NCBI GenBank assembly: GCA_000004695.1
Contig: CM000152.2
Span: 544,001 to 608,000 of the forward strand
Length of the DNA stretch: 64,000 nucleotides
From: Dictyostelium discoideum
Taxonomy: Eukaryota
Reading direction: 5' to 3'
A program made the position numbers and the translations under genes. The notes beneath the pieces are model-generated. The model had not been told where the DNA came from. It did no database searches and was given only the letters and a program-made list of their open reading frames with translations. The first letter of the stretch is position 1; every line of letters begins with the position of its first letter. Shown in pieces: positions 1,241 through 17,800 of the stretch.

Positions 1241-1918
1241 TTCTTCTTTGTATTATTATGATTATTTTTAAAAAAACCTTGACCATTTTATATTTTTTTT
1301 TTTATCGTTTTTTTTTTTTTTGTTGATTTTTTTTTTTAAAAAAAAAATCTGTTTGGTGAAGTGGTATTTGAACATGGTTCATTTCACATTCATATCGTTT
1401 ATTTTATTTTTTTTGATTTTTTTGATTTTTTTTTTTTTTTTTTAAAAATTTTTTTTTTTTTAAAAATAATATCTTTTTGATTGAATTAACTGAAAAATGA
1501 TGAATCTATGGAATACTCTATCCAATTCTTTTCTCAGTCCAACAAGATTTTATTAAATTAACCGAAAATACCGAAAAAATGAGATTTTTATTTTATCAGA
1601 ATCACAAAAAAAAAAAAAACTTTTGGGATTTTGAAATTTGATTTATAAATTTGAACTATAATTTTATCAATAATAATAAACAATTATTTACTGCTATTTA
1701 TTACTAATTTTATTTATTATTAAAGTTATATTTGAATTTTTTCTTTGAATATTTAGGAAATATGAATCATATTATTTTAATTTTGTTTTTTTATAGAGGA
1801 ATCACAATCCAAACATTTCCAATTATTGATTAAAAAAAAAAAAATATGTTTCAATTTAAATGGTTTAAAAATGTTCAAACTAAAAAATTATTTAAACGTT
1901 CTAAAATAATAAAACACA

Positions 1919-1933
1919 GGGAAGAGCAATTTT
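1919..1933. repeat. Target-site duplication (left copy) gggaagagcaatttt; right copy at 5033-5047
   Basis: Exact 15-bp match bracketing the 3.1-kb insertion; G/C-containing, so unlikely by chance in AT-rich DNA. Confidence 0.7.
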
Positions 1934-2102
1934 GATCAAAAAAAATGTTAAAATTAAAAATTTAATAAATAAAAATTTTTTTTTTTTTAACATCACTCAA
2001 TTTGATAATAAATAAAATTTTTTTTTTTTTTTGAATTGGATAACGCAATTATTATTTGCTTCTCCTTGAGATGCTAGATCTCATTTTATTTTTTTTTTTT
2101 TT

Positions 2103-2344
2103 TTACAGGGTCTTTTTGATTAAAACATCTTTTTTGTCCAAACTTTTTTCTAAATCTTTTTTTATTTTATCGTCTGGTTCGTGATTGATGTTTATGACGT
2201 ATTTGAATTGTTTTTTTTTTAATTGAGTTTTATCCACAATTTCGCTTATTTTTTGTAGGCATTTGTGTTGCTTAATATTTGTGGTGTTGTTTGTGATTTT
2301 CATTTTATTTTCTTTCTATCTTTTTTATTTTTCTGATTAACTTG

Positions 2345-2403
<59 letters not shown>
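2103..2403 (-). repeat. Second (3') B-module copy: oligo(A)58 + 5'UTR + first 66 codons of ORF1, truncated
   Basis: Near-identical to 3840-4155, including the ttctgattaacttgggtt motif and poly-T run; ORF 2103..2303 is identical to the ORF1 N-terminus. Confidence 0.6.
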
Positions 2404-2405
<2 letters not shown>

Positions 2406-2701
2406 TTATAGAAAGTACTGAGTGAATTATTGTATTTTTTGAGATGTTTAGGAAGTTCTATTGCGGGTGTTGATGATGATTTGTGACACCCCTTGTCCTG
2501 TTTTATCAATTGGTGCGTGGTGTGTTATTTTGTTTTTATATTGTTGATTTATTGAGTAAATTTTATTTGTTTTTATATTTGTTTCAGTTAGAAGTGCTGC
2601 GTCCAGCTTGTTGTTGTCTAAAACGGTGTTTATTATGCTGGCAGATTGGATGGTGTTGGATCCTTGGACGTTCCAAACACCTATTCTTATTGTGTTTTTC
2701 T

Positions 2702-4036
2702 TTATAGTTTTATTTGGGGTAGATTTTTATCTACCTTTTGAAGTTTCTGGTTTATTTTGTCTTCTAACTGATCTTTACTTTGTTCATTGTGTTGTTGGTC
2801 TTGTGTGTTTGTGGGGTTTTTTGATTTATTGATTTGTTTTAGAATTTCCTTGTTGAAGTTGTCTATATCTTCATCCATTTTTGTTTTTATGCTTTTTTGT
2901 CCATATTCACCCAATTTTGGTTTGACTGGTGTTTTGTTGGTCTTGTTTGTTTTGTCTTGTTGTTTCTTTTTTGGTGTGTTTAACAATTTACTTGGTGAAT
3001 CGATAATTTTCGATGGTGTACCATAGGTTGGGCTGAAACTCATGATATGTTTTATTGGAGAGGAGAAGAACCATTGATTTGAAGGGATTGAAAGTGGGAA
3101 TTCTATTTTTCTTATTGCATCAGTGTTTGGGCTGGTGAAGTCGAAGATATCATTTGCCTCTCTAAGTTTTTCTTCCGTTGTTAGTCCCTTTGTTTCGCCG
3201 TGTTGTTTTATTGGTGTATTGTATGGAGATGGTGGTTCGATAGGTTTTTCTGATTTTGTTTTAATTTCTTGATTGTTTATCGATTGTGTATTGATCTCAT
3301 TCTCTATTCTTGTTAGTTCATCTACGTTTTCTAGTGATGCTTCTATTACCTTTTGAGCTGTATCATCTAGGGCCATAAATGTTTTATCATTAGATGAGGA
3401 TGTGATTGGTGGGATAATGATTGTTCTTTTTCCTTGTTTTGGTATTTGTTCTGATGTAGATTGTGGTTGTTGTTCATCTGATTGTTTTTTATTTTTGTTT
3501 TCTTCTTGATTTTCTGGTAATGAGGTTTGATCTCTCCATCCTTTGTTGGAGTGTCCAATTAATGTTAGATTGTCTAGTTCAATGATAGTGTCAAATTCTT
3601 CTACGACTCTTTTCACTGTTTTGATAATTAGAGTTTCGCCTTTAATTTCTGATTTAATTAGTTTACATCCTTCATTTTCTATTACCCATTCTATTTCTGT
3701 GAGTGATTTATACCAATCAAAATCTGTATACATATTTTTTGGTCTTAAAGTGGTTATAAATTGTCCTTTTAATTCTGCATCAAACATATTTACAAAATAG
3801 ATTACTGTACTAATACTGTCTGTGAGAATTTTGAATGTATTATTACTTTTGATTAAAACATCTTTTTTGTCCAAACTTTTTTCTAAATCTTTTTTTATTT
3901 TATCGTCTGGTTCGTGATTGATGTTTATGACGTATTTGAATTGTTTTTTTTTTAATTGAGTTTTATCCACAATTTCGCTTATTTTTTGTAGGCATTTGTG
4001 TTGCTTAATATTTGTGGTGTTGTTTGTGATTTTCAT
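2702..4036 (-). CDS. TRE5-A-like ORF1 protein (444 aa, basic N-terminus, S/T/P/Q-rich C-terminal half)
   Basis: Intact 444-aa ORF directly 3' of A/B-modules. Its N-terminal 66 aa are duplicated exactly at 2103-2303. Size matches the reported ~51 kDa ORF1p of TRE5-A; sequence identity to TRE5-A ORF1 not verifiable here. Confidence 0.55.
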   Translation of the reverse strand: MKITNNTTNIKQHKCLQKISEIVDKTQLKKKQFKYVININHEPDDKIKKDLEKSLDKKDVLIKSNNTFKILTDSISTVIYFVNMFDAELKGQFITTLRPKNMYTDFDWYKSLTEIEWVIENEGCKLIKSEIKGETLIIKTVKRVVEEFDTIIELDNLTLIGHSNKGWRDQTSLPENQEENKNKKQSDEQQPQSTSEQIPKQGKRTIIIPPITSSSNDKTFMALDDTAQKVIEASLENVDELTRIENEINTQSINNQEIKTKSEKPIEPPSPYNTPIKQHGETKGLTTEEKLREANDIFDFTSPNTDAIRKIEFPLSIPSNQWFFSSPIKHIMSFSPTYGTPSKIIDSPSKLLNTPKKKQQDKTNKTNKTPVKPKLGEYGQKSIKTKMDEDIDNFNKEILKQINKSKNPTNTQDQQHNEQSKDQLEDKINQKLQKVDKNLPQIKL

Positions 4037-4112
4037 TTTATTTTCTTTCTATCTTTTATATTTTTCTTTAAAAAGTTAAAAATCTGGAAATTTTCTGATT
4101 AACTTGGGTTCC

Positions 4113-4155
<43 letters not shown>

Positions 4156-4158
<3 letters not shown>

Positions 4159-5027
4159 TCTTTTTTATATGAAAAATGAAATAATCAAAAAAAGAGATTG
4201 TTGTTGTTGTTTGTTTTTTTCGATCTGATTATTTTTTGCTTTTTTTTTGAAAATTTTGCTACGCAAAATTCTCAAAACGAAACAAATAATAAATTACAAT
4301 AAAGTAAAAAGATGGCTTTTTAAAATAGTTTATTTATTTATTTATTTGTTTTTTAAGTCTTTTTTATATGAAAAATGAAATAATCAAAAAAAGAGATTGT
4401 TGTTGTTGTTTGTTTTTTTCGATCTGATTATTTTTTGCTTTTTTTTTGAAAATTTTGCTACGCAAAATTCTCAAAACGAAACAAATAATAAATTACAATA
4501 AAGTAAAAAGATGGCTTTTTAAAATAGTTTATTTATTTATTTATTTGTTTTTTAAGTCTTTTTTATATGAAAAATGAAATAATCAAAAAAAGAGATTGTT
4601 GTTGTTGTTTGTTTTTTTCGATCTGATTATTTTTTGCTTTTTTTTTGAAAATTTTGCTACGCAAAATTCTCAAAACGAAACAAATAATAAATTACAATAA
4701 AGTAAAAAGATGGCTTTTTAAAATAGTTTATTTATTTATTTATTTGTTTTTTAAGTCTTTTTTATATGAAAAATGAAATAATCAAAAAAAGAGATTGTTG
4801 TTGTTGTTTGTTTTTTTCGATCTGATTATTTTTTGCTTTTTTTTTGAAAATTTTGCTACGCAAAATTCTCAAAACGAAACAAATAATAAATTACAATAAA
4901 GTAAAAAGATGGCTTTTTAAAATAGTTTATTTATTTATTTATTTGTTTTTTAAGTCTTTTTTATATGAAAAATGAAATAATCAAAAAAAGAGATTGTTGT
5001 TGTTGTTTGTTTTTTTTATAATAAATA
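4156..5027 (-). repeat. Tandem array of 199-bp A-modules (4 full copies + ~75-bp partial) at the 5' end of the TRE5-A-like element
   Basis: Unit starts (aagtcttttttatatgaaaaatg...) at 4156, 4355, 4554, 4753, 4952; exact period 199 bp, copies about 99% identical. Confidence 0.8.
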
Positions 5028-5032
5028 AAATG

Positions 5033-5047
5033 GGGAAGAGCAATTTT
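5033..5047. repeat. Target-site duplication (right copy), 18 bp upstream of tRNA-His
   Basis: Identical to 1919-1933. Confidence 0.7.
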
Positions 5048-5065
5048 TGTTGAAAATATCAATTC

Positions 5066-5137
5066 GCCGTGATAGTATAGTGGTAGTACATCAGATTGTG
5101 GCTCTGTTGACCCTGGTTCGATTCCAGGTCGCGGCAC
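5066..5137 (+). tRNA. tRNA-His (anticodon GUG)
   Basis: Cloverleaf: acceptor gccgtga/tcgcggc with one G-U pair; D-arm gtat-agtggta-gtac; anticodon stem tcaga/tctgt; loop ttGTGgc; T-arm cctgg-ttcgatt-ccagg; discriminator A. No encoded G-1 (added post-transcriptionally in eukaryotes). T-run follows immediately. Confidence 0.85.
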
Positions 5138-5146
5138 TTTTTTTTA
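5138..5146 (+). terminator. Pol III terminator T-run (tttttttt) immediately 3' of tRNA-His
   Basis: 8 consecutive T directly after the discriminator base. Confidence 0.6.
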
Positions 5147-5165
5147 ATTTCCCATTTTTGAACTT

Positions 5166-5177
5166 AGGTTCGATTCC
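5166..5177 (+). promoter_or_regulatory. External B-box (exB) downstream of tRNA gene: aggttcgattcc
   Basis: Second perfect B-box consensus (GGTTCGANTCC) about 30 bp past the tRNA 3' end. Extragenic B-boxes are a known feature of many D. discoideum tRNA genes and of TRE3 targeting. Confidence 0.5.
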
Positions 5178-5279
5178 TGTTTTGGTCAAAAAATAGGAAA
5201 ATATATATTCTAAACAACAATGATATTTCACCAGATATGGATATGGATTCGCAATCAACTTTATAGCGACAACAAAATA

Positions 5280-6120
5280 CAAGACACAACATTAGACTAT
5301 GATATGATTTCAAAAAATGGTATAAATCAGCAACCTTGGACTATATAAATAAAGTTAAAAATTATAAATTATCATCAAAAGAAACACCCTCAATTTGTAA
5401 CAAAACCGAATACATCAAGCAAATTAAAAATATTAAAAACCAAATTATTAAAGAGTATTGTTTATCAAGCACAATACTACCAAATAGAGTAATTGTTGGT
5501 CAATTCATATAAATATAAAAATTTAAATCAAAAAAAATATAAATAAACAAAATAAACTACTATTATTGCTTAGGATTCAAATCTAGCAAATAATTAATAT
5601 AAAAAAAAAAAAAAAAAAAAGATTCCCATATTGAAGGATCATGAGGTTGACATAGACTATGCTAAGATTTCACAAAGGATATTTTGAATGGGATATAAAT
5701 TTGTAAAATATGACCTATCAAGAACCTTAGCATAAAGAAACGTAATGGTATTAACATCTGGGTTTGATCAATTGTATAGAGACGAACCGTCTAAAGATGA
5801 AAAGCTCTCACACTTGATTCTACTTAATAAATGGTACAAACAAGCTACTGCAGAATATATAAAAAAGAAAAAATTAAAAATTAACTCTTTCAAAAGATCT
5901 GGTTTAAAATTTTAAAGACCCAAACGATTTCCTTAAACAAATAACTAAATTAAGAAAATTAACTTACAAACTTATATTTGATAATTCAAATTAAAAAAGA
6001 ATAACTACTTTACATTTTAAAATTAAAATTCATAAATAAAACTATTAATTATTATTTATTTCCTTTAATGGATAAATACTGATTAATCAATATTAAAAAA
6101 AAGAAGTTCTAGATTGATAT
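5280..6120. other. Degenerate coding-like remnant, possibly a decayed retroelement downstream of the tRNA (TRE3-type position)
   Basis: Lower AT content than surrounding spacers. Translations give long ORF-like stretches interrupted by scattered stops (e.g. ...HEVDIDYAKISQRIF*MGYKFVKYDLSRTLA*RNVMVLTSGFDQLYRDEPSKDEKLSHLILLNKWYKQATAEYIKKK). No intact ORF. Confidence 0.25.
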
Positions 6121-6156
6121 GGATCTTCTTACTAGTCGGTTTTTGCAGCGTTTTTG

Positions 6157-6336
6157 ATTGCTTCGATGGTTTTTGATTCGATCGAGTTGTTTTTGACTTT
6201 TTGGGATGACTCACCATGACATCATTGGATTCTTAAGATACTCCGAAAGAAGCTTCTGACAACAATGTCATGGAGATCGCACCAAAAATTAAAAGACAAA
6301 TCAATTGAGTCAAAAACCATCGAAGCAACGACTCGT
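6157..6336. repeat. Long imperfect inverted repeat / potential ~180-nt hairpin
   Basis: ttgcttcgatggtttttga(t/c)tc at 6158-6180 is the reverse complement of gagtcaaaaaccatcgaagcaa at 6308-6329. Nested arms ccatgacatcattgg (6214-6228) and caatgtcatgg (6263-6273). Region is unusually GC-rich for an intergenic spacer. Confidence 0.5.
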
Positions 6337-6512
6337 TAGAACAAGAATCAAAACCACTGTAAATTGTAATGGTTGATTACTTAACTTGTTTATCATTAGC
6401 ATTACCCTAACCAATTATCTCTATAACTTGGCCAGCATTTTGTAAATGACCAGATCCAATAAAAATGATATTCTTATTTCTACCAAAAGATTGTGGAGTA
6501 AAAAATAGGTGA

Positions 6513-6551
<39 letters not shown>

Positions 6552-6724
6552 GATTGATTATTTTAAAAATCTTTGATTTTGTTGCATTGAATTCCAAACC
6601 TTGCAAAAATGTAGCTAACAATGTTAAATTGAATTACAACCTTTGAAACTGCTTTTTGGTGAAATTATTCTATTTTTTATTTTTTTATTTTTTTTTTTAT
6701 TTTTTTTACATTTTTATTATTATT

Positions 6725-6757
<33 letters not shown>

Positions 6758-6843
6758 ATTAAACATTAAAAAAAATATTCACCCTAATTAAAATATTGGT
6801 TAAAGAATATAAAATAAGGGTGAATATTATTTTTAAAAGATTA

Positions 6844-6879
<36 letters not shown>

Positions 6880-7037
6880 AACAAACTAAAATAAAAAAAT
6901 GAAAATAAAAAAAAAAAAAATGAAAAAAAATTAAAAAAAGTTTCAAAAAAATGAAAAAAAAAAAAAAATATTTATTTTAAAAAAATAAAAACAAATTAGA
7001 TATTATATATTAATATTCAAAATACAAATATAAGATA

Positions 7038-7809
7038 ATGAGTAAGGCACCAGTAAATATAGTGGATAGACCATTATCTAAAGGTAAGGGTGAAATAAAT
7101 ATTAGTTCATTTGCATTTCTTTTCTCTGAAATGATTCAATATTGTCAAGATAGAATTAAAGCAGGTCATGAACTTGAAAAAAAGTAAGAATTTTATTATT
7201 ATTTTTTTATTTTTTATTTTTTATTTTTTTTATTTTTTTATTTTTTTATAATTATCACTATTACTACTTAATACAAATACATATACATACTAACATCACT
7301 GTTAACAGATTATCAGATATGGGATATTCTATTGGACCAAGATTATTAGAATTATTATGTGTTAGAGAAAAGAATTCTAAAAGAGAAACTAAATTACTTG
7401 GTATATTATCATTCATTCATACAACAGTTTGGAAATCATTATTTGGTAAACCTGCCGATTCATTAGAAAAGAGTACAGAGGCAGATGATGAATATATGAT
7501 TTCTGATAATAATATGGTTGTAAATAAATTTATTTCTTTACCAAAACATTTAAGTAGTTTAAATTGTGCTGCTTTCGTAGCTGGTATAATTGAAGGAATT
7601 TTATGTTCCGCTGAATTTGTAATATTATCATAATAATAATCATAAATAAATAATCATAAATAATTATACTAACTATATATTTAATATTTAATATTATTAT
7701 TTTAGCCAGCAAGAGTCACAGCTCATAATGTTGCAGTTGAGGGTAAAAGATTCCCTAAAACTGTTATTTTAATTAAATTTAATCCAGAAGTTATTGAAAG
7801 AAATGCATA
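7038..7809 (+). CDS. trappc5: TRAPP complex subunit 5 (Trs31/TRAPPC5 homolog), 3 exons: 7038..7183, 7309..7618, 7706..7809
   Basis: Spliced protein [104 protein letters not shown]...[53 protein letters not shown]. It aligns along its length with human TRAPPC5 (SAFALLFSELVQHC...RETKVLGALLFVKGAVWKALFGKEADKLE...NCASFTAGIVEAVL...PAKVTAH). GTAAGA/GTAATA donors and AG acceptors keep the frame. Confidence 0.8.
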
Positions 7810-8138
7810 AATAATTATAATAATACAATTAACAACAATAAAAAAGAATTTTGTAAAATATAAAAATCATTTTTTTTTTTTTTTTTAACAAATCTAAGAT
7901 TTTAGGATTTTTTTTTTTTTTTTTTTTGTTAATTAATTTGGTGGTAATTTAATGTTTAAATTTGAATTCAATTTTTTCATCCAATTCCACCAGATTTTTT
8001 TTTTTTTTTTTTATTTTTAATTTTTTTTATTTTTTTTTTTTTTATTTTTTATTTTTTTTTTTTTTTTAATCAAATTCTAGAGAAAAAAAAAAGAAAAAAG
8101 TAAATCATTTTAAATGCACATTTTTTTAAAACAATTAA

Positions 8139-10805
<2,667 letters not shown>

Positions 10806-10944
10806 TAAAAATAAATTTAATTTAAATAATATTTTTTATTACTTTTTGGTGAAGTTTTTTTTTTGTCTTTATTTTCTTTTTTTTTTTTTTAATTTTTTTT
10901 TTTTTTTTTTTTGAAATTTCACATATCTACAAAATTTTAAAAAA

Positions 10945-11789
10945 ATGAAAGAAATAGATGATATTGTGGGACAATTGTGTGATAAAATTATTAATGAATT
11001 TCAAAAACATGATAAAAATGAAAAGTTTTTAGTATGTTTGGCAGGACCTCCAGGATCAGGAAAATCAACAATTTCAGAATCTTTAGTTAAAGAATTAAAT
11101 AAAAAATTAAAAGAAAATAATAGTAATAGTAATAATAATAATAATAATAATTCATCATCACCAGCTGTTATAATACCAATGGATGGTTATCATTTAGATA
11201 ATTGTATTTTAAAAGAAAGAGATTTATTAAATAGAAAAGGTTCACCACAAACTTTTGATATAGTTGGTTTCATTCATATGCTAAATAGATTAAAAGATCA
11301 AGGTGTAAATAATAATAATGAAAATGAAAATGAAAATAATGATATAAATAAATTATCAATTTATATACCAACATTTGATAGAGATATAGACTTATCTAAA
11401 AATGCTTCTTTTACTGTTACAACTTCAAACAGTTTATTAATTGTTGAAGGTTTGTTAATTTTTTTTTTTTTTTTTTTTTTTTTCAATTCTTATTTTAAAA
11501 AATTAATAATAATAATAACAATAATAATAAATTTTATAAAATAGGAAATTATTTATTATTAAATCAAGAACCTTGGTGTAAATTAAAAAAATTATTTAAT
11601 ATTTGTATATATGTTCAAGTAGAATTACCATGTTTAGAGAAAAGATTAATAAAAAGATGGACCACCCACAATCATAATCTTGAAGCAGCAACAACAAGAG
11701 CACTTTCAAATGATATTCCAAATGCTATATTAGTTTCTAATAATTCAAATTTAGAAAATGTTTTGGTAATTGAAAATAATGATAAATAA
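10945..11789 (+). CDS. P-loop ATP-dependent kinase of the uridine-kinase/PRK family, YFH7-like; 2 exons 10945..11449, 11545..11789
   Basis: Walker A LAGPPGSGKST. Motifs IIPMDGYHL, RKGSPQTFD, LLIVEGNYLLLNQEPW and RLIKRW align with yeast YFH7 (IVPMDGFHL...RRGSPSTFD...ILEGLYLLYDQENW...). Phase-1 intron with gtttgt donor at 11450 and ag acceptor at 11543-11544 restores the VEG|NYLLL motif. Confidence 0.7.
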
Positions 11790-14487
11790 ATAAATTAATA
11801 ATAAATAAAAAATAAAAATAAAAAAAAAAAAAAAAACAAAATTAATAAAATTTTAATAATTAATAATATAAAAATAAAAAAAAAAAAAAAATTGATATCA
11901 CATATTAAAAAAAAAAAAAAATAAAATAAAATAATAATAATAATAAAGTGGTAATAATAATATCAAAATAAAAAAAAAAAAAAAAAAAAAAATATTAATA
12001 TAAAAAAAATATATAATAATTGATGATGCAATCTACTATGATATCTTTATTTAGTTAACTTATCAAAAATTAAAAAGGTAATATTTGACAATGTCAATGT
12101 TACAAAAAATATAAATAGTTTGAAAAAAAAAAAAAAAAAAAAAAAAAACTACTGAAAATGGTGATGGTGTAGGTTTAAATCAATTATTTTTTTTTTATAT
12201 TTTTTATTTTTAATTATACAATACTTGCACAGATTATTTGATTTTAGCGATACAGTAAATTTCAAAAAAAATTTTATGAAAATGCTGGGGTTAAAATTTA
12301 ATAATTACAAATTAATAAAATTACCCCCACTAACCTCACACGTTTTTCACTTGCTCCACTTGATCCCATTCAAATAATATTTTTTTACAAATATAAAAAT
12401 AAACTGTTGAAAACGGATAAATTGTTTGAAAAAATATATAATAACTAAAAATAACAACAATAATTTATTTTACAAATAGTCGATAATTTCATTACATCAT
12501 CTAAAAATAATTTTTTTTTTCAAACCATGATCAATCATGGTAAAACAAATTGGTATTTGTTATTATTATATAAAAATAAATTAATAAAATAGTAATAAGA
12601 AGTAAATAAATTTTTTTTTTTTTTTTTTATTAAATTATTTTTATTATTATTTTTTTATTTTTTATTTTTTTAACTTTACAAAGCATATAAACTGAAAATA
12701 AATAAATTATTTAAACATATTTAACTCATTTAACTTATTTTTATTTTTTTATTTTACGATAAATTTTGGATAGCAATAAAAAAAAAAAATTTGTTATTAA
12801 AAATTTGAGGTTAAATTGTTATTAATTTCATTAAAAAAAATTAATTCAAAAAAAAAAAAATATGAGTTGTTCAATTTCATGGTGTCAAAATATTAAAAAA
12901 CATACATTAACAATATTTTAATTAACCCACAAAAACAAATTTCCAAACACAATATTAATATTCAAACTCACTTAATTATAACCCCCATTCGCTATTTTAT
13001 CAAATTCACTATTGTAATAAACTATATAAATATTATCCCCCAAATTAATTATTTGAATTGATTTTATTTTTAATTATTTTTTTATTTTTTTATTTTTTTT
13101 TTTTTTATTTAAACAGTTACACCCCACAATTTTAATTATTAATAGGCTGATTTTGTGGGTAAAAAGAGTGGTATTTTTTTGGGTGATTGTTTTAATAATC
13201 AAATTTACAAATTTACAGTAGATGATGTTTGAAATTAAATAAATTAAAAGTGTATGTTTTATTTAATTTTTTTTTTTTTTTTTTATATTGATTTTTATAT
13301 TGATTTTTTATTATTGTTAATTGTACTTTTTAATCTCTTGTTATCATCAAACTCTACACAAATAGGTTATTTACAAAATCTATTAAAATTATTCAAATAT
13401 AGGTGTGGGTTTGTTGTGTGTGAATATATTAATATAAATTTGTGATTTTGTTATTGTTTTTAAACATTACTGTTGTTTTTTTTTTTTATTTATGTGGTTT
13501 AGAGAGTTTGAGATAGTGAGGTTTTTTAATTATGATTTCATATACAATTGAAAAAATAAAAAATATTTAATAATATGATTATGCATTATTTGATGTTATG
13601 GTTGTAAACTCGTGAGGGGGTTGGTGATTTTATAGTTGTAAAAAATTTTGCAATAAAATATATTATGTAAACTGATACTTTATACTATTGGAAAAGAAAA
13701 AAAAGAAATTAATTATACATAACACCACAAACAATTTCTATTTTCAAACACACACATGTGATATTTTTAATTTTTCATAAAAATACCTTGTGTACATATA
13801 AACAGATAGTACAATAATGAAAAAAAAGTTATCTCACTCTCTATTTAAAATAATTAACACACTTTCACCAAAATTATACACCACCACCATAAATAATAAA
13901 AATAAAAAATAGAATAAAAAAAATAACAATAATGATAATAAATAATATAATGAAACATTGGGGTTGTATAAAAAAACAATTTAAAAAAATACATACATAC
14001 ACATATTATTATTGTTAAAAAAATGTATATTTTATATTGCGTAATGGTTTTGCGGTCTTTTTAAGAATATCACTAATCAAATATGATCGACAATCCAATT
14101 ATTTTTAATTTACCATACTTTATTTTTTTTAAAATTAATTTTAATTTTATTTTATTTTTATTTTTATTTTTTTGTTTATATTTTTTTTTTTTTTGTGTAA
14201 ATATTTTTTGTATAAATATTTGATTATTTTAATTTTATTTTCATCAATTCAAAAATTAACTTTTAAATTGGAATATATTTAAATAATTTAATATTTCAAT
14301 ATATTTATTTATTTTAAATAAATAAATAAAAAAAAAAAAAAAAAAAAAAAAAAAATAATATTTATTTATTAAAAAAAAAAAAAAATCATTTAAAAAAAAA
14401 AAAAAAAAAAAAAAACAAAAAAAAAAAAAGTAGGAAAAGGAATTAGTAAAAACTAAAATCATTAGTTTAAAAATTATAACGTTGAAA

Positions 14488-14805
14488 ATGAAAATTTCTA
14501 TATTTATTTTATTACTATTTATTAGTAGTATGGTAATAATATCAGTTAATGGTATGTTTATTTTTTTTTTTTTTTTTTTCTTTATTAAATAATTGGAAAT
14601 TCTAATAATTTTTTTTTTTTTTTATTTCTTTTTTTTTTTTTAATATTTAATAGCGGAAACTGAAACCATACAAACCAATACAGCATGTGATTGTGATGAT
14701 GATTGTGATGATGGAAATAGATGGTCAACAGATATGTGTTCTGCAGGTTTACTTTTTGGAAAATATTGCACTCATACTCAAATTTGTTGTGATGATGAAA
14801 GTAAA

Positions 14806-14840
<35 letters not shown>

Positions 14841-17800
14841 CCTAAACAGTTTTTTTTTTTTTTTTTTTTTTTTCAAAACAGTTTTTTTTTTTTTTTTTTC
14901 ACTCTCTAATTTTTTAAAAAAAAAAACATATAATTTTAAACTAATAAATAAACAACATACAATTTTATACTATAAATTTTATATTATATTTTATAGATGC
15001 ATGCACAATTGATAGTTGTTCAAAAACTTCAGGTTGTGTTCATACCCCAATAAATGTGGATGATAAAAATCCATGTACAATTGATTCATGTATCAAAGGT
15101 TTTATTTCACATACTCAAATCTCTTGTGATGATAAGAATGCTTGTACAATCGATAGTTGTGACTGTTCATCAGGTTGTCAAAATAAACCAATGTCCTGTG
15201 ATGATAATAATCCATGTACCGTAGATTCTTGCAATAATTCAACCGGTTGTCGTAATACCCCAATCAGTGTAGATGATAATAATCCATGCACAATAGATTC
15301 ATGTTCAAAATCAACTGGTGTAGTTCACATTCCAATCAATGTCGACGATCTTAACCCATGTACAATTGATGCATGTACCAAAGAAGGTGGTGTTACTCAT
15401 ACTCCAGTCAATGTTGATGATAATAACAAATGTACCACTGATTCATGTTCGCTATTTACAGGTATAACTCACACTGAAATCTGTTGTGATGATAATAATG
15501 CCTGTACAGATGATTCCTGCTCACCATCAACTGGTTGCGTAAATACCCCAATTTCTTGTGATGACAAAAACCCATGCACCGTAGACTCTTGCAACAATTC
15601 AACTGGTTGCTGTTATACCCCAATCAATGTTGATGACAATAATCCATGTACCATCGATGCCTGTACTAAATCAACAGGTGTCACCCACACTCCAATCAAT
15701 GTCGATGATAATAACCAATGTACAACTGATTCATGTACCAAAGAAGGTGGTGTAACTCATACTCCAGTCAATACTGATGATAACAATCCATGTACTGTTG
15801 ACTCCTGCTCACCATTTACAGGTGTTTCTCACACTCCAATCAATGTTGATGATAATAACAAATGTACAATTGATGCATGTACCAAAGAAGGTGGTGTAAC
15901 TCATACTCCAGTCAACACTGATGATAACAATGCCTGTACCCTTGATTCTTGTTCACCATTAACTGGTGTCACTCATACCCCAATAAACTGTGACGATAAA
16001 AAGGCCTGTACTGTAGATTCATGTTCAAATTCAACTGGTTGCGTAAATACTCCAATTTCCTGTGATGATAATAATCCATGTACTGTTGATACCTGTGATG
16101 ACTCAACCGGTTGTTGCAATACTCCAATCAATGTTGATGATAATAATCCATGTACCGTAGATGCCTGTACCAAATCAACAGGTGTCACTCATACCCCAGT
16201 AAATGTAGATGATAATAACAAATGTACAATTGATGCATGTACCAAAGAAGGTGGTGTAACTCATACTCCAGTCAATACTGATGATAACAATGCCTGTACT
16301 CTTGATAACTGTTCACCATTAACCGGTGTCACTCATACCCCAATAAATTGTGATGATAAAAAGGCCTGTACTGTCGACTCATGTTCAAACTCAACTGGTT
16401 GCGTAAATACTCCAATTTCCTGTGATGATAATAATCCATGTACTGTTGATTCTTGTGATGACATAACTGGTTGTTGCAATACTCCAATCAATGTTGATGA
16501 TAATAATCCATGTACCGTCGATGCCTGTACCAAATCAACAGGTGTCACTCATACCCCAGTAAATGTAGATGATAATAACAAATGTACAATTGATGCATGT
16601 ACCAAAGAAGGTGGTGTAACTCATACTCCAGTCAATACTGATGATAACAATGCCTGTACACTTGATTCCTGTTCACCATCAACTGGTGTTTCCCACACCC
16701 CAATTAACTGTGATGATAGTAATCCATGTACCGTAGACTCATGTTCAAATTCAACCGGTTGTGTAAACACTCCAGTCAATGTTGATGATAATAATCCATG
16801 TACTGTAGATGCTTGTACCAAATCAACAGGTGTCACACATACCCCAGTAAATGTAGATGATAACAACAAATGTACAATTGATGCATGTACCAAAGAAGGT
16901 GGTGTAACTCATACTCCAGTCAACACTGATGATAACAATGCCTGTACAATTGATTCTTGTTCACCATCAACCGGTATTTCCCACACCCCAATCAATTGTG
17001 ATGATAAAAAGGCCTGTACAGTTGATTCATGTTCAAATTCAACTGGTTGTGTAAATACTCCAATTTCCTGTGACGATAATAATCCATGTACTGTTGATTC
17101 TTGCGATGACTTAACTGGTTGTTGCAATACTCCAATCAATGTTGATGATAATAATCCATGTACCATCGATGCCTGTACTAAATCAACAGGTGTTACTCAT
17201 ACCCCAGTCAATGTAGATGATAATAACAAATGTACAATTGATACATGTACCAAAGAAGGTGGTGTAACTCATACTCCAGTCAATACTGATGATAACAATG
17301 CCTGTACCCTTGATTCCTGCTCACCATCAACTGGTGTTTCCCATACCCCAATAAACTGTGATGATAATAATAAATGTACTGTAGATTCATGTTCAAACTC
17401 AACTGGTTGTGTAAATACTCCAATTAACTGTGACGATAGTAATCCATGTACCGTAGACTCATGCAATAATTCAACTGGTTGTGTAAACACTCCAGTCAAT
17501 GTTGATGATAATAATCCATGTACCGTCGATGCCTGTACCAAATCAACAGGTGTTACTCATACCCCAGTCAATGTAGATGATAACAACAAATGTACAATTG
17601 ATGCATGTACCAAAGAAGGTGGTGTAACTCATACCCCAGTCAATACTGATGATAACAATGCCTGTACAATTGATGCATGTACAAAAGAAGGTGGTGTAAC
17701 TCATACTCCAGTCAATACTGATGATAACAATGCTTGTACCCTTGACTCCTGTTCACCATCAACTGGCGTTTCCCACACCCCAATTAACTGTGATGATAGT

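Follow-up and report, generated by a model that had tools for sequence, protein, structure and literature searches.

The window analysed here is a 64,000-nucleotide stretch of Dictyostelium discoideum DNA. It holds a tRNA-His(GTG) gene with a retrotransposon upstream of it in the opposite orientation, so that the two stand head-to-head. The retrotransposon is a copy of TRE5-A.2 in the annotated AX4 reference genome, and as such it is already known. Work on TRE5-A.2, formerly called DREb, and on the way it targets tRNA genes goes back to 1989. The features of the locus are collected in Table 1.

The HisGUG primer published for this tRNA (S1 Table, PMC5391098) matches the gene in the window. This tRNA-His has been an insertion target more than once, independently in several lineages. 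Among the neighbouring genes, one exon of a CEMIP-like gene, used as a protein query, returned no Dictyostelium orthologues. The neighbours of 888 aa and 199 aa have no exact-sequence entry in the protein collection searched.

Table 1 Features at the tRNA-His locus, listed from the tRNA gene outward along the minus strand.
Feature	Positions	Strand	Basis or remark
tRNA-His(GTG)	5066-5137	+	integration landmark; internal B box GGTTCGATTCC at 5115
Right outer repeat GGGAAGAGCAATTTT	5033-5047	.	19-33 nt upstream of tRNA-His
TSD, 5'-side copy ATAATAAATAAAAT	5018-5031	.	repeat search and junction comparison
A-module array (plus-strand promoter), 4.44 x 199 bp, units mutually identical	4130-5017	-	tandem-repeat analysis
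Oligo(A)39 run, boundary of A-array and B-module	4117-4155	-	sequence
5' B-module, 291 bp, includes ORF1 start codon at 4036	3826-4116	-	repeat and full-length-copy comparison
ORF1, intact, 444 aa, 51.3 kDa	2702-4036	-	ORF list
ORF2 5' remnant, first 87 codons, start of APE endonuclease domain	2466-2726	-	alignment to L003
ORF2 3' remnant, last ~20 codons and stop, frame ...AIELPKHLKKYNNSLSTFYK then stop	2402-2465	-	equals C-terminus of the 1152-aa ORF2 of L003
Long oligo(A) run between ORF2 stop and 3' B-module	2347-2401	-	sequence
3' B-module copy, truncated at B/C junction	2114-2345	-	identity to 5' B-module
C-module 3' remainder, two stem-loops, end ...GCGTTATCCAATTC	2033-2104	-	98.8% to full-length copy 3' end
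Oligo(A)14 tail of TRE5-A.2	2019-2032	-	similarity of non-orthologous copies stops here
TSD, 3'-side copy ATAATAAATAAAAT, 14 bp	2005-2018	.	adjoins oligo(A) tail
Putative stub X, 30 bp	1976-2005	-	A13 tail (1976-1988) and 17 nt TCAAATTGAGTGATGTT (1989-2005)
First TAATAAATAAAA copy, directly before T13 run	1963-1974	.	repeat search
Old spacer between outer repeats	1934-1962	.	pre-existing intergenic sequence, shared in L016/L011 alignment
Left outer repeat GGGAAGAGCAATTTT	1919-1933	.	exact repeat; not the TRE5-A.2 TSD

Identity and layout of the element

ORF1 is identical to the AX4 gene DDB_G0278641, and a protein search finds more than 30 AX4 paralogues at 98% identity. Outside the AX4 family, the sole other match is a D. 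cf. discoideum protein with 66% identity. A Pfam search found no domain in ORF1. Its calculated mass agrees with the 51 kD published for the TRE5-A ORF1 protein (PMC5911963). An ORF1 protein peculiar to TRE5-A and unlike those of other elements is a mark of this family, and the window protein fits it.

There is no ORF for a reverse transcriptase or endonuclease in the element, only the two ends of ORF2. The first of these shares 25 nt with the end of ORF1. Over the 79 residues aligned before the deletion junction, it matches the N-terminus of a full-length ORF2 at 100% identity, and beyond that the frames diverge. A full-length ORF2 of 1152 aa is found at locus L003, where it matches RVT_1 with E = 3e-33 and, weakly, Exo_endo_phos and zf-RVT. 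Relative to that copy, 3,133 bp are deleted (L003 12191-15323), with the breakpoint at window position 2465. The B/C junction is also shortened, to 9 nt in the window versus 84 nt in L003, a net loss of about 75 bp. What is retained of the C-module is 72-87 nt, by choice of boundary.

TRE5-A.2 is defined by a large ORF2 deletion and a 72-bp BC deletion, after which the C-module keeps ~87 bp at its 3' terminus (PMC3159450). Both deletions of the window copy match this published definition, and it is therefore placed in the TRE5-A.2 subtype, a name that rests on agreement with published descriptions and on gene identity. The 5' UTR of TRE5-A is described as one or more ~200-bp A-modules followed by a ~290-bp B-module (PMC3159450); the window fits this plan with its 199-bp units, 291-bp B-module and ATG at 4036. 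The B-module then recurs, with 2114-2334 equal to 3847-4067 over 221 nt at 100% identity. The nearby oligo(A) run at 2347-2401 is 15 nt shorter in L002, the orthologous insertion.

The C-module end ...CCAATTC, followed by A14, is common to the window and nine other copies. Counted from the 3' end, the bases C38, A35, C26 and T15 match published mutagenesis sites in four cases out of four (PMC3159450), and all of them fall in predicted stems. The folding energy of the C-module remainder is -11.3 kcal/mol (z = -3.67).

A preliminary description of this DNA, made from the sequence alone, was right on several of these points. The non-autonomous TRE5-A.2-type identity, the missing enzymatic ORFs, the intact ORF1, the second B-module copy, the module order and the head-to-head position next to tRNA-His all hold.

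The window copy shows no essential difference from TRE5-A.2. It shares the AB-ORF1-BC layout, the ORF2 and B/C deletions, the C-module hairpin, the 51-kDa ORF1, the oligo(A) tail, the 14-bp target-site duplication (TSD), the head-to-head position at 48 nt from the tRNA and the low divergence of 0-4 substitutions per 2 kb. With TRE5-A.1 (DREa), the autonomous 5.6-kb parent, it has in common the A, B and C modules, ORF1, the ends of ORF2 and the target preference. TRE5-A.1 however has the full 1152-aa ORF2 (APE, RT, zinc finger) and the full C-module, both of which the window copy lacks. Going by the literature, the window copy, unlike TRE5-A.1, would need ORF2 protein in trans.

The published model of retrotransposition would run as follows here. 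RNA polymerase II would start transcription of the element in the A-module, and the ORF1 protein would tether the RNP to TFIIIB at the tRNA gene. TRE5-A.1 copies would provide ORF2 protein (endonuclease, RT, zinc finger) in trans, and this protein would recognise the C-module hairpin and carry out target-primed reverse transcription at a point some 47 bp upstream of the tRNA. Mobilisation in trans by the TRE5-A.1 ORF2 protein and binding of ORF1 to TFIIIB come from the experimental literature (PMC3159450, PMC5391098, PMC5911963), and the C-module hairpin is needed for retrotransposition (PMC3159450).

Ends of the element and the nested repeats

The locus contains two nested pairs of direct repeats, and the choice between them determines where the element ends. 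The preliminary description picked the outer pair. An exact 15-bp direct repeat, GGGAAGAGCAATTTT, does exist at 1919-1933 and 5033-5047; it occurs exactly twice in the window, where ~0.19 chance matches are expected. If it were the TSD, the element would span 1934-5032 and would have inserted 33 bp from the tRNA.

The ends were instead located by comparison with other copies. These are unannotated copies from GCA_054883475.1; an exact protein look-up of one ORF1 paralogue gave nine loci. In nine other TRE5-A.2 copies, the similarity to the window ends at the oligo(A) tail (~2019-2023). For L003-L010 it stops at element position ~3010-3015, which is window ~2018-2023. Seven copies (L003-L008 and L010) have a TSD of 13-16 bp immediately after the oligo(A) tail. 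The same junction rule, applied to the window, yields a TSD that matches at 14 of 14 positions, ATAATAAATAAAAT. Judged by these junctions, the element is 2019-5017, with 1934-2017 and 5032 outside it, and the inner 14-bp repeat is the real TSD, abutting both the oligo(A) tail and the 5' end. Published TRE5-A TSDs are 10-16 bp long (PMC5391098, PMC9012585). ATAATAAATAAAAT is AT-only and of low complexity, and TAATAAATAAAA occurs four more times in the window, so that this TSD by itself carries less weight than a repeat with G or C would.

With the inner repeat as TSD, the distance from element to tRNA becomes 48 nt (5018-5065, up to tRNA-His +1). For the six other copies whose tRNA is mapped, the distance read from their junctions is ~45-51 nt. 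TRE5-A integrates 47+/-3 bp upstream of tRNA genes (PMC5391098), so 48 nt is canonical, and the 33-bp spacing once described as unusually short does not exist.

The outer repeat is also present where the element is not. L016, from a divergent related genome, has a syntenic tRNA-His site with flanks that are 84-93% identical and no match to any TRE5-A module. It retains both copies of GGGAAGAGCAATTTT, 63 bp apart. L011 and L015 likewise hold both copies, and window 1913-1976 is 81.5% identical to L011. Since both copies are found in L016 without TRE5-A, the outer repeat is, by this comparison of sites, an older duplication of the region upstream of tRNA-His that predates the insertion. TRE5-A.2 landed in the spacer between two pre-existing copies of GGGAAGAGCAATTTT.

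These sites bear on both ways of making GGGAAGAGCAATTTT the TSD. That the repeat is exact, contains G/C, is unique in the window and brackets the element speaks for the plain version, an insertion of 1934-5032. A minus-strand 3' end at 1934 would lack an oligo(A) tail, in every non-orthologous copy the similarity has already ended 84 bp before, at the oligo(A) tail, and a perfect 14-bp TSD lies inside. TRE5-A copies of the reference genome are reported to lie at 37-211 bp (PMC5391098), a range that a distance of 33 bp falls short of, and the element-free L016 refutes the model, leaving it extremely improbable. The other version is a read-through transcript, from 15 nt upstream to 84 nt downstream of a source TRE5-A.2, which was retrotransposed whole and acquired GGGAAGAGCAATTTT as its new TSD. 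Such an event is expected to produce just the order seen here, outer-inner-element-inner-outer. Its 3' terminus would nevertheless have neither an A-tail nor the C-module with the required hairpin (PMC3159450), and the copy would lie, again, a non-canonical 33 bp from the tRNA. Genomes without the element have the spacer 1934-1976 and both outer repeats at the orthologous site, which makes these local and not transduced sequence. Read-through can hardly be credited.

A long TSD of ~100 bp was ruled out, as the repeat order is nested rather than tandem. An origin of the outer repeat from DGLT-A or another LTR element was also rejected: LTRs are absent, and the repeat is of the wrong length for it. 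Ty3 of yeast and DGLT-A of D. discoideum resemble TRE5-A in targeting TFIIIB-bound regions upstream of tRNA genes, and the outer repeat lies where DGLT-A inserts, 13-33 bp upstream. They are LTR elements with integrase chemistry and short TSDs of ~5 bp, and none of these traits is found in the window element.

The best explanation overall, and one of high confidence, is that 2019-5017 on the minus strand is a non-autonomous TRE5-A.2 inside an older spacer, with ATAATAAATAAAAT as its TSD. The insertion had been called recent, which is true only in a loose sense. For this speak the 0-4 substitutions over 2 kb among TRE5-A.2 copies; against it, AX4 and a second isolate have the insertion in common. 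The window copy differs from others by 2-4 substitutions in 2.07 kb, which makes it far younger than the 7-15% divergence of the flanks.

A putative earlier insertion

TAATAAATAAAA, contained in the TSD, is found at 1963, 2006 and 5019, with only four other occurrences on both strands of the window. The copy at 1963 is probably, to go by its position, the ancestral target and left TSD of an older insertion, here called X. The 30 bp at 1976-2005 would be what remains of X, a putative, severely 5'-truncated stub. In a three-way alignment neither L016 nor L011 has these 30 bp, which are flanked by TAATAAATAAAA copies. The 84 bp at 1934-2017 comprise old spacer and possibly this stub.

TRE5-A.2 probably inserted beside an earlier TRE stub at the same target, which would give a TRE-TRE tandem with three target copies. 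The predicted allele before both insertions is ...GGGAAGAGCAATTTTGATCAAAAAAAATGTTAAAATTAAAAATTTAATAAATAAAATGGGGAAGAGCAATTTTTGTTG..., and that with stub X alone is ...AATAAATAAAAA-T13-AACATCACTCAATTTGATAATAAATAAAATGGGG....

TREs form tandems beside one and the same tRNA gene (PMC5391098). In L003, a TRE5-A.2 separates the tRNA from an older TRE5-A.1, whose 5' end directly adjoins the TSD of the TRE5-A.2. The arrangement proposed here is alike in that the newcomer sits between tRNA and earlier insertion, the ~47-bp position is used again and the target is duplicated again. The difference is that the older partner would be merely a 30-bp putative stub.

The 30 bp may also be lineage-specific AT-rich intergenic sequence, with the third TAATAAATAAAA copy a low-complexity coincidence, and this is given somewhat less than an even chance. 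The 17-nt stub body matches nothing in the loci compared. A mismatch-tolerant search of other loci with a 16-nt body found nothing adjoining a poly(A) tail, and when the 86-bp 'extra' sequence was compared with all loci by short-word BLAST, only low-complexity T-run matches came back besides the orthologue L002. The motif is AT-only, with the further occurrences already noted, and an extra A after the first copy makes the repeat imperfect. A chance origin has to contend with TAATAAATAAAA directly abutting a T13 run, the geometry of a TSD beside an oligo(A) tail, with the absence of the 30 bp from L016 and L011, and with the comparable tandem in L003.

Length of the A-module array

A tandem-repeat search reports a 199-bp array of 4.5 copies with 99% matching (4130-5016). 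Compared directly, the 199-bp units are 100% identical to each other. The array of 4.4 units that had been described is thereby confirmed. Its supposed rarity is not, as other copies checked hold 8.4, 8.5 and 21.5 units.

The first of these is L002, the same insertion in the assembly of a second isolate, with 8.44 units. Arrays of 8.5 and 21.5 units belong to other TRE5-A copies, and elsewhere the range is 1.3 to 21.5; the commonest sampled copies have ~1.5, versus 4.44 in the window. Copies with identical bodies carry 1.5, 8.4 and 21.5 units. A tree of TRE5-A.2 bodies, with one informative site in 2,072 columns, does not resolve the inheritance of long arrays. The length of the A-array is unstable and not diagnostic. 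In a 1992 description the proximal repeat reportedly already consisted of one A-module or several, with a B-module after them. A full-text search of the literature for 'A-modules' with TRE5-A found no paper.

The 4.4 units in the window are either a polymorphism or an assembly collapse. For collapse, with a true array of ~8.4 units as in L002, the odds appear a little unfavourable. The AX4 reference was made from short Sanger reads, which are unable to span an 887-bp array of perfect repeats. The units are indeed fully identical, and the second assembly of the insertion has exactly four more (1,680 bp versus 883 bp). That assembly is however of another strain, with 13 substitutions in 6.2 kb of flank, so true polymorphism is equally possible, and the arrays of 1.3 to 21.5 units elsewhere establish that the length varies.

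All in all, the locus has little discovery value, and the useful result is the correction of boundaries. The apparent anomalies, which were a 15-bp TSD, a 33-bp spacing and an 'expanded' array, vanish once the true ends are taken from other copies and from element-free orthologous sites. What may interest specialists is the repeated targeting of tRNA-His, and A-arrays that range from ~1.5 to ~21 perfect units and differ at one orthologous insertion. The 4.4 versus 8.4 units of that insertion suggest, at slightly less than even odds, that the A-module promoter array acts as a fast-evolving minisatellite after integration. If true, the length of the array could adjust how strongly the plus strand is transcribed, and thereby how non-autonomous copies compete for ORF2 protein.

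Element ends and distance to the tRNA gene

The preliminary description placed the element at 1934-5032, 33 bp from tRNA-His. Comparison with other copies moves both ends. Nine loci with the commonest ORF1 variant were taken from a second D. discoideum assembly, GCA_054883475.1. All non-orthologous copies stop resembling the window at element position ~3010-3015, where the oligo(A) tail lies (window ~2018-2023), and not at 1934. The 3' end reads ...GCGTTATCCAATTC, then A10-A27, in 9/9 copies. At loci L003-L008 and L010, the tail is directly followed by 13-16 bp that recur as a direct repeat at the 5' end. Applied to the window, this TSD rule gives ATAATAAATAAAAT at 2005-2018 and 5018-5031 (14/14 match), and the element is therefore 2019-5017 (2,999 bp).

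This leaves exactly 48 nt (5018-5065) up to the tRNA-His +1. TRE5-A inserts 47+/-3 bp from tRNA genes, with TSDs of 10-16 bp and strictly 5'-to-5' (PMC5391098, PMC9012585, PMC5911963). A tRNA was mapped for six further copies, which lie ~45-51 nt from it as read from their junctions, or 41-51 nt by raw BLAST starts. With the ends reset, nothing in the element's TSD length, distance or orientation departs from the canonical pattern.

Compared with the commonest start (AGATCGAAAAAAAC...), the 5' end of the window element is set back by 5-6 nt and has one ambiguous extra A, which is normal for TRE5-A copies. In three full-length copies (L006 7620, L007 7627, L010 7611) an extra G separates the TSD from the start AGATCG...; it may be cap-derived or non-templated.

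Features of the window around tRNA-His
Feature	Position	Strand	Remark
tRNA-His(GTG)	5066-5137	+	ARAGORN and Rfam agree
A-module array, 4.5 copies of 199-bp unit	4130-5016		Tandem Repeats Finder
ORF1, 444 aa	4036 to 2702	minus	
221-nt duplicate incl. ORF1 start	2114-2334 = 3847-4067		100% identity
B-module, 291 bp	3826-4116		

The outer repeat and a proposed older insertion at the site

The 15-bp repeat GGGAAGAGCAATTTT, earlier taken for the TSD, occurs exactly twice in the 64-kb window, at 1919-1933 and 5033-5047, where ~0.19 matches are expected by chance. It does not recur as a common motif there. It is not the TSD.

The orthologous locus in GCA_054883475.1 (L002) carries the same insertion with shared junctions; its flanks differ from those of the window by 13 substitutions over 6.2 kb on the right and by none over 1.9 kb on the left. 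The adjoining 888-aa protein and the TRAPPC5 protein led to more divergent syntenic loci. One of these, L016 (GCA_054859355.1), matches the window at 84-93% identity in its flanks and has a tRNA-His at the corresponding place; a search of it for TRE5-A modules matched none. It has GGGAAGAGCAATTTTT two times, 63 bp apart, with a spacer homologous to window 1934-1975. In GCA_054859385.1 (L011/L015) both repeat copies are kept, each ~24 nt, with only a 72-bp A-module fragment and A16 between them. Because both copies are present at these loci, the outer repeat is older than the arrival of TRE5-A.2, and the real TSD is the 14-bp ATAATAAATAAAAT.

L016 might be thought a deletion derivative of the same insertion. 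Only 2-4 substitutions in 2.07 kb separate the window element from other TRE5-A.2 copies, against 7-15% flank divergence; the element is thus much younger than that divergence, which excludes such a derivation. Read-through, or transduction with flanks carried along, is also excluded, since the 'transduced' sequence is the local sequence.

The old GGGAAGAGCAATTTT(T) duplication in L016 (7470-7658) has a 63-bp tandem-like appearance and ends 19 nt before the tRNA. The L011-L016 assemblies are far more divergent than is usual among conspecific isolates.

The extra 84 bp (1934-2017) begin with the old spacer between the outer repeats (1934-1975). The stretch 1976-2005 (T13 run + 17 nt), called X here, is missing from L016 and L011. 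Ahead of it, at 1963-1974, stands a third copy of TAATAAATAAAA; the TSD accounts for the other two, and only four more exist in the window. X would be an earlier, severely 5'-truncated insertion (17 nt + A13) that duplicated its target TAATAAATAAAA. TRE5-A.2 would later have landed between X and tRNA-His, duplicating the target again, so that its 14-bp TSD would take in the 5'-terminal nucleotide of X. We infer this step, as X matched nothing among the fetched loci, and consider it more probable than not.

L003 has a like geometry, with TRE5-A.2 placed before TRE5-A.1, but the distal partner there is a full element, whereas here it would be the 30-bp X. Direct tandems of TRE5-A.2 and TRE5-A.1 at a single tRNA gene are seen at L003 (7436-15869) and L004 (1807-10002), where the tRNA-proximal element has its TSD directly against the 5' end of its distal neighbour. 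TRE tandems at tRNA genes have been described (PMC5391098).

Other remnants sit at the syntenic gene. L011 7081-7167 (= L015 7226-7312) is a 72-bp 5' A-module piece followed by A16, ~45 nt from tRNA-His. It may be a full element shrunk by deletion between an internal A-run and the tail, or may have arisen by priming on that A-run. In another divergent genome, L014 7107-7483 holds 0.4 A-unit and the B-module, followed by ORF1 up to nt 209, at ~91% identity; this is a separate, 3'-truncated remnant. The tRNA-His gene is independently targeted in several lineages.

Identity of the element

The TRE5-A.2-type call is correct, judged by ORF1 family, deletions and modules against published descriptions and unnamed copies, and the element is already known. 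The 15-bp repeat, tRNA-His, 199-bp array, 444-aa ORF and 221-nt duplicate are all present in the sequence as first described. The ORF1 protein equals DDB_G0278641 with no differences, and >30 D. discoideum AX4 proteins annotated as 'hypothetical' are 98% identical to it. Its mass is 51.3 kDa, against a published 51 kD (PMC5911963). At 199 bp and 291 bp, the A unit and the B-module agree with their published lengths of 200 and 290 bp.

Full-length copies with ORF2 are also found in 2/9 of the GCA_054883475.1 loci. That ORF2 is 1152 aa stop-to-stop, with a strong RVT_1 match and weak Exo_endo_phos and zf-RVT matches in the expected order. The window element is colinear with the full-length L003 copy (10029-15869) apart from two deletions. 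At window 2465, 3,133 bp are gone, so that codon 87 of ORF2 runs into the final ~20 codons; ~75 bp are gone at the B/C junction. Up to the first junction, the remnant is the N-terminus of full-length ORF2 (IGVWNVQG...DAALLTET) at 100% identity.

Two stem-loops are predicted in the 72 nt just ahead of the tail (-11.3 kcal/mol, z = -3.67). C38, A35, C26 and T15 (numbered from the 3' end), the bases mutated by Siol et al. (PMC3159450), are all found at those positions, inside predicted stems.

The tRNA-His is the sole tRNA or Rfam match in the whole window (ARAGORN, Rfam). A second B-box, GGTTCGATTCC, the same as the internal B box at 5115, lies 30 nt downstream (5167-5177). The adjoining TRAPPC5 gene is DDB_G0278643, which, with the ORF1 identity, puts the window on chromosome 3 of AX4. 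The exact sequence of the single-exon 888-aa ORF beside it (8139-10805, +) was not found in the protein collection; the sole reported match is an 84%-identical protein, P0031, from a genome labelled D. discoideum.

Array length and mobility

At least four A-modules had been considered exceptional. The 12 arrays at the GCA_054883475.1 loci, leaving out the L009 fragment, have 1.34, 1.47 (x4), 1.54, 2.19, 2.39, 2.49, 8.44, 8.48 and 21.48 units, so the 4.44 units in the window are unremarkable. The 1992 DRE description reportedly already allowed 'one or multiple A-modules'. L002, L007 and L010 have identical bodies and arrays of 8.4, 21.5 and 1.5 units. The L007 element (3628-7901), whose 21.5 tandem A-units make up 4.3 kb of promoter repeats, lies 49 nt upstream of tRNA-Ala with a 15-bp TSD; L008 has 8.5 units upstream of tRNA-Gly.

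Full A-units in the window are mutually 100% identical. The L002 array (6226-7905; 8.44 units) has exactly four units more than the window's (4130-5017; 4.44), with identical junctions. L002 also has 15 nt fewer in the A-run that precedes the 3' B-module, and a few base differences in the 5' B-module. The difference in arrays is either a post-integration change or a collapse of perfect repeats in the reference assembly.

The A-module is a Pol II promoter producing plus-strand RNA, the TRE5-A ORF1 protein binds TFIIIB subunits, and the TRE5-A.1 ORF2 protein acts in trans by target-primed reverse transcription, for which the C-module hairpin is required; the C-module doubles as a weak antisense promoter (PMC3159450, PMC5391098, PMC5633606, PMC5911963). 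Because it retains all cis elements and an intact ORF1, the TRE5-A.2 in the window is, going by its sequence, plausibly still mobilisable.
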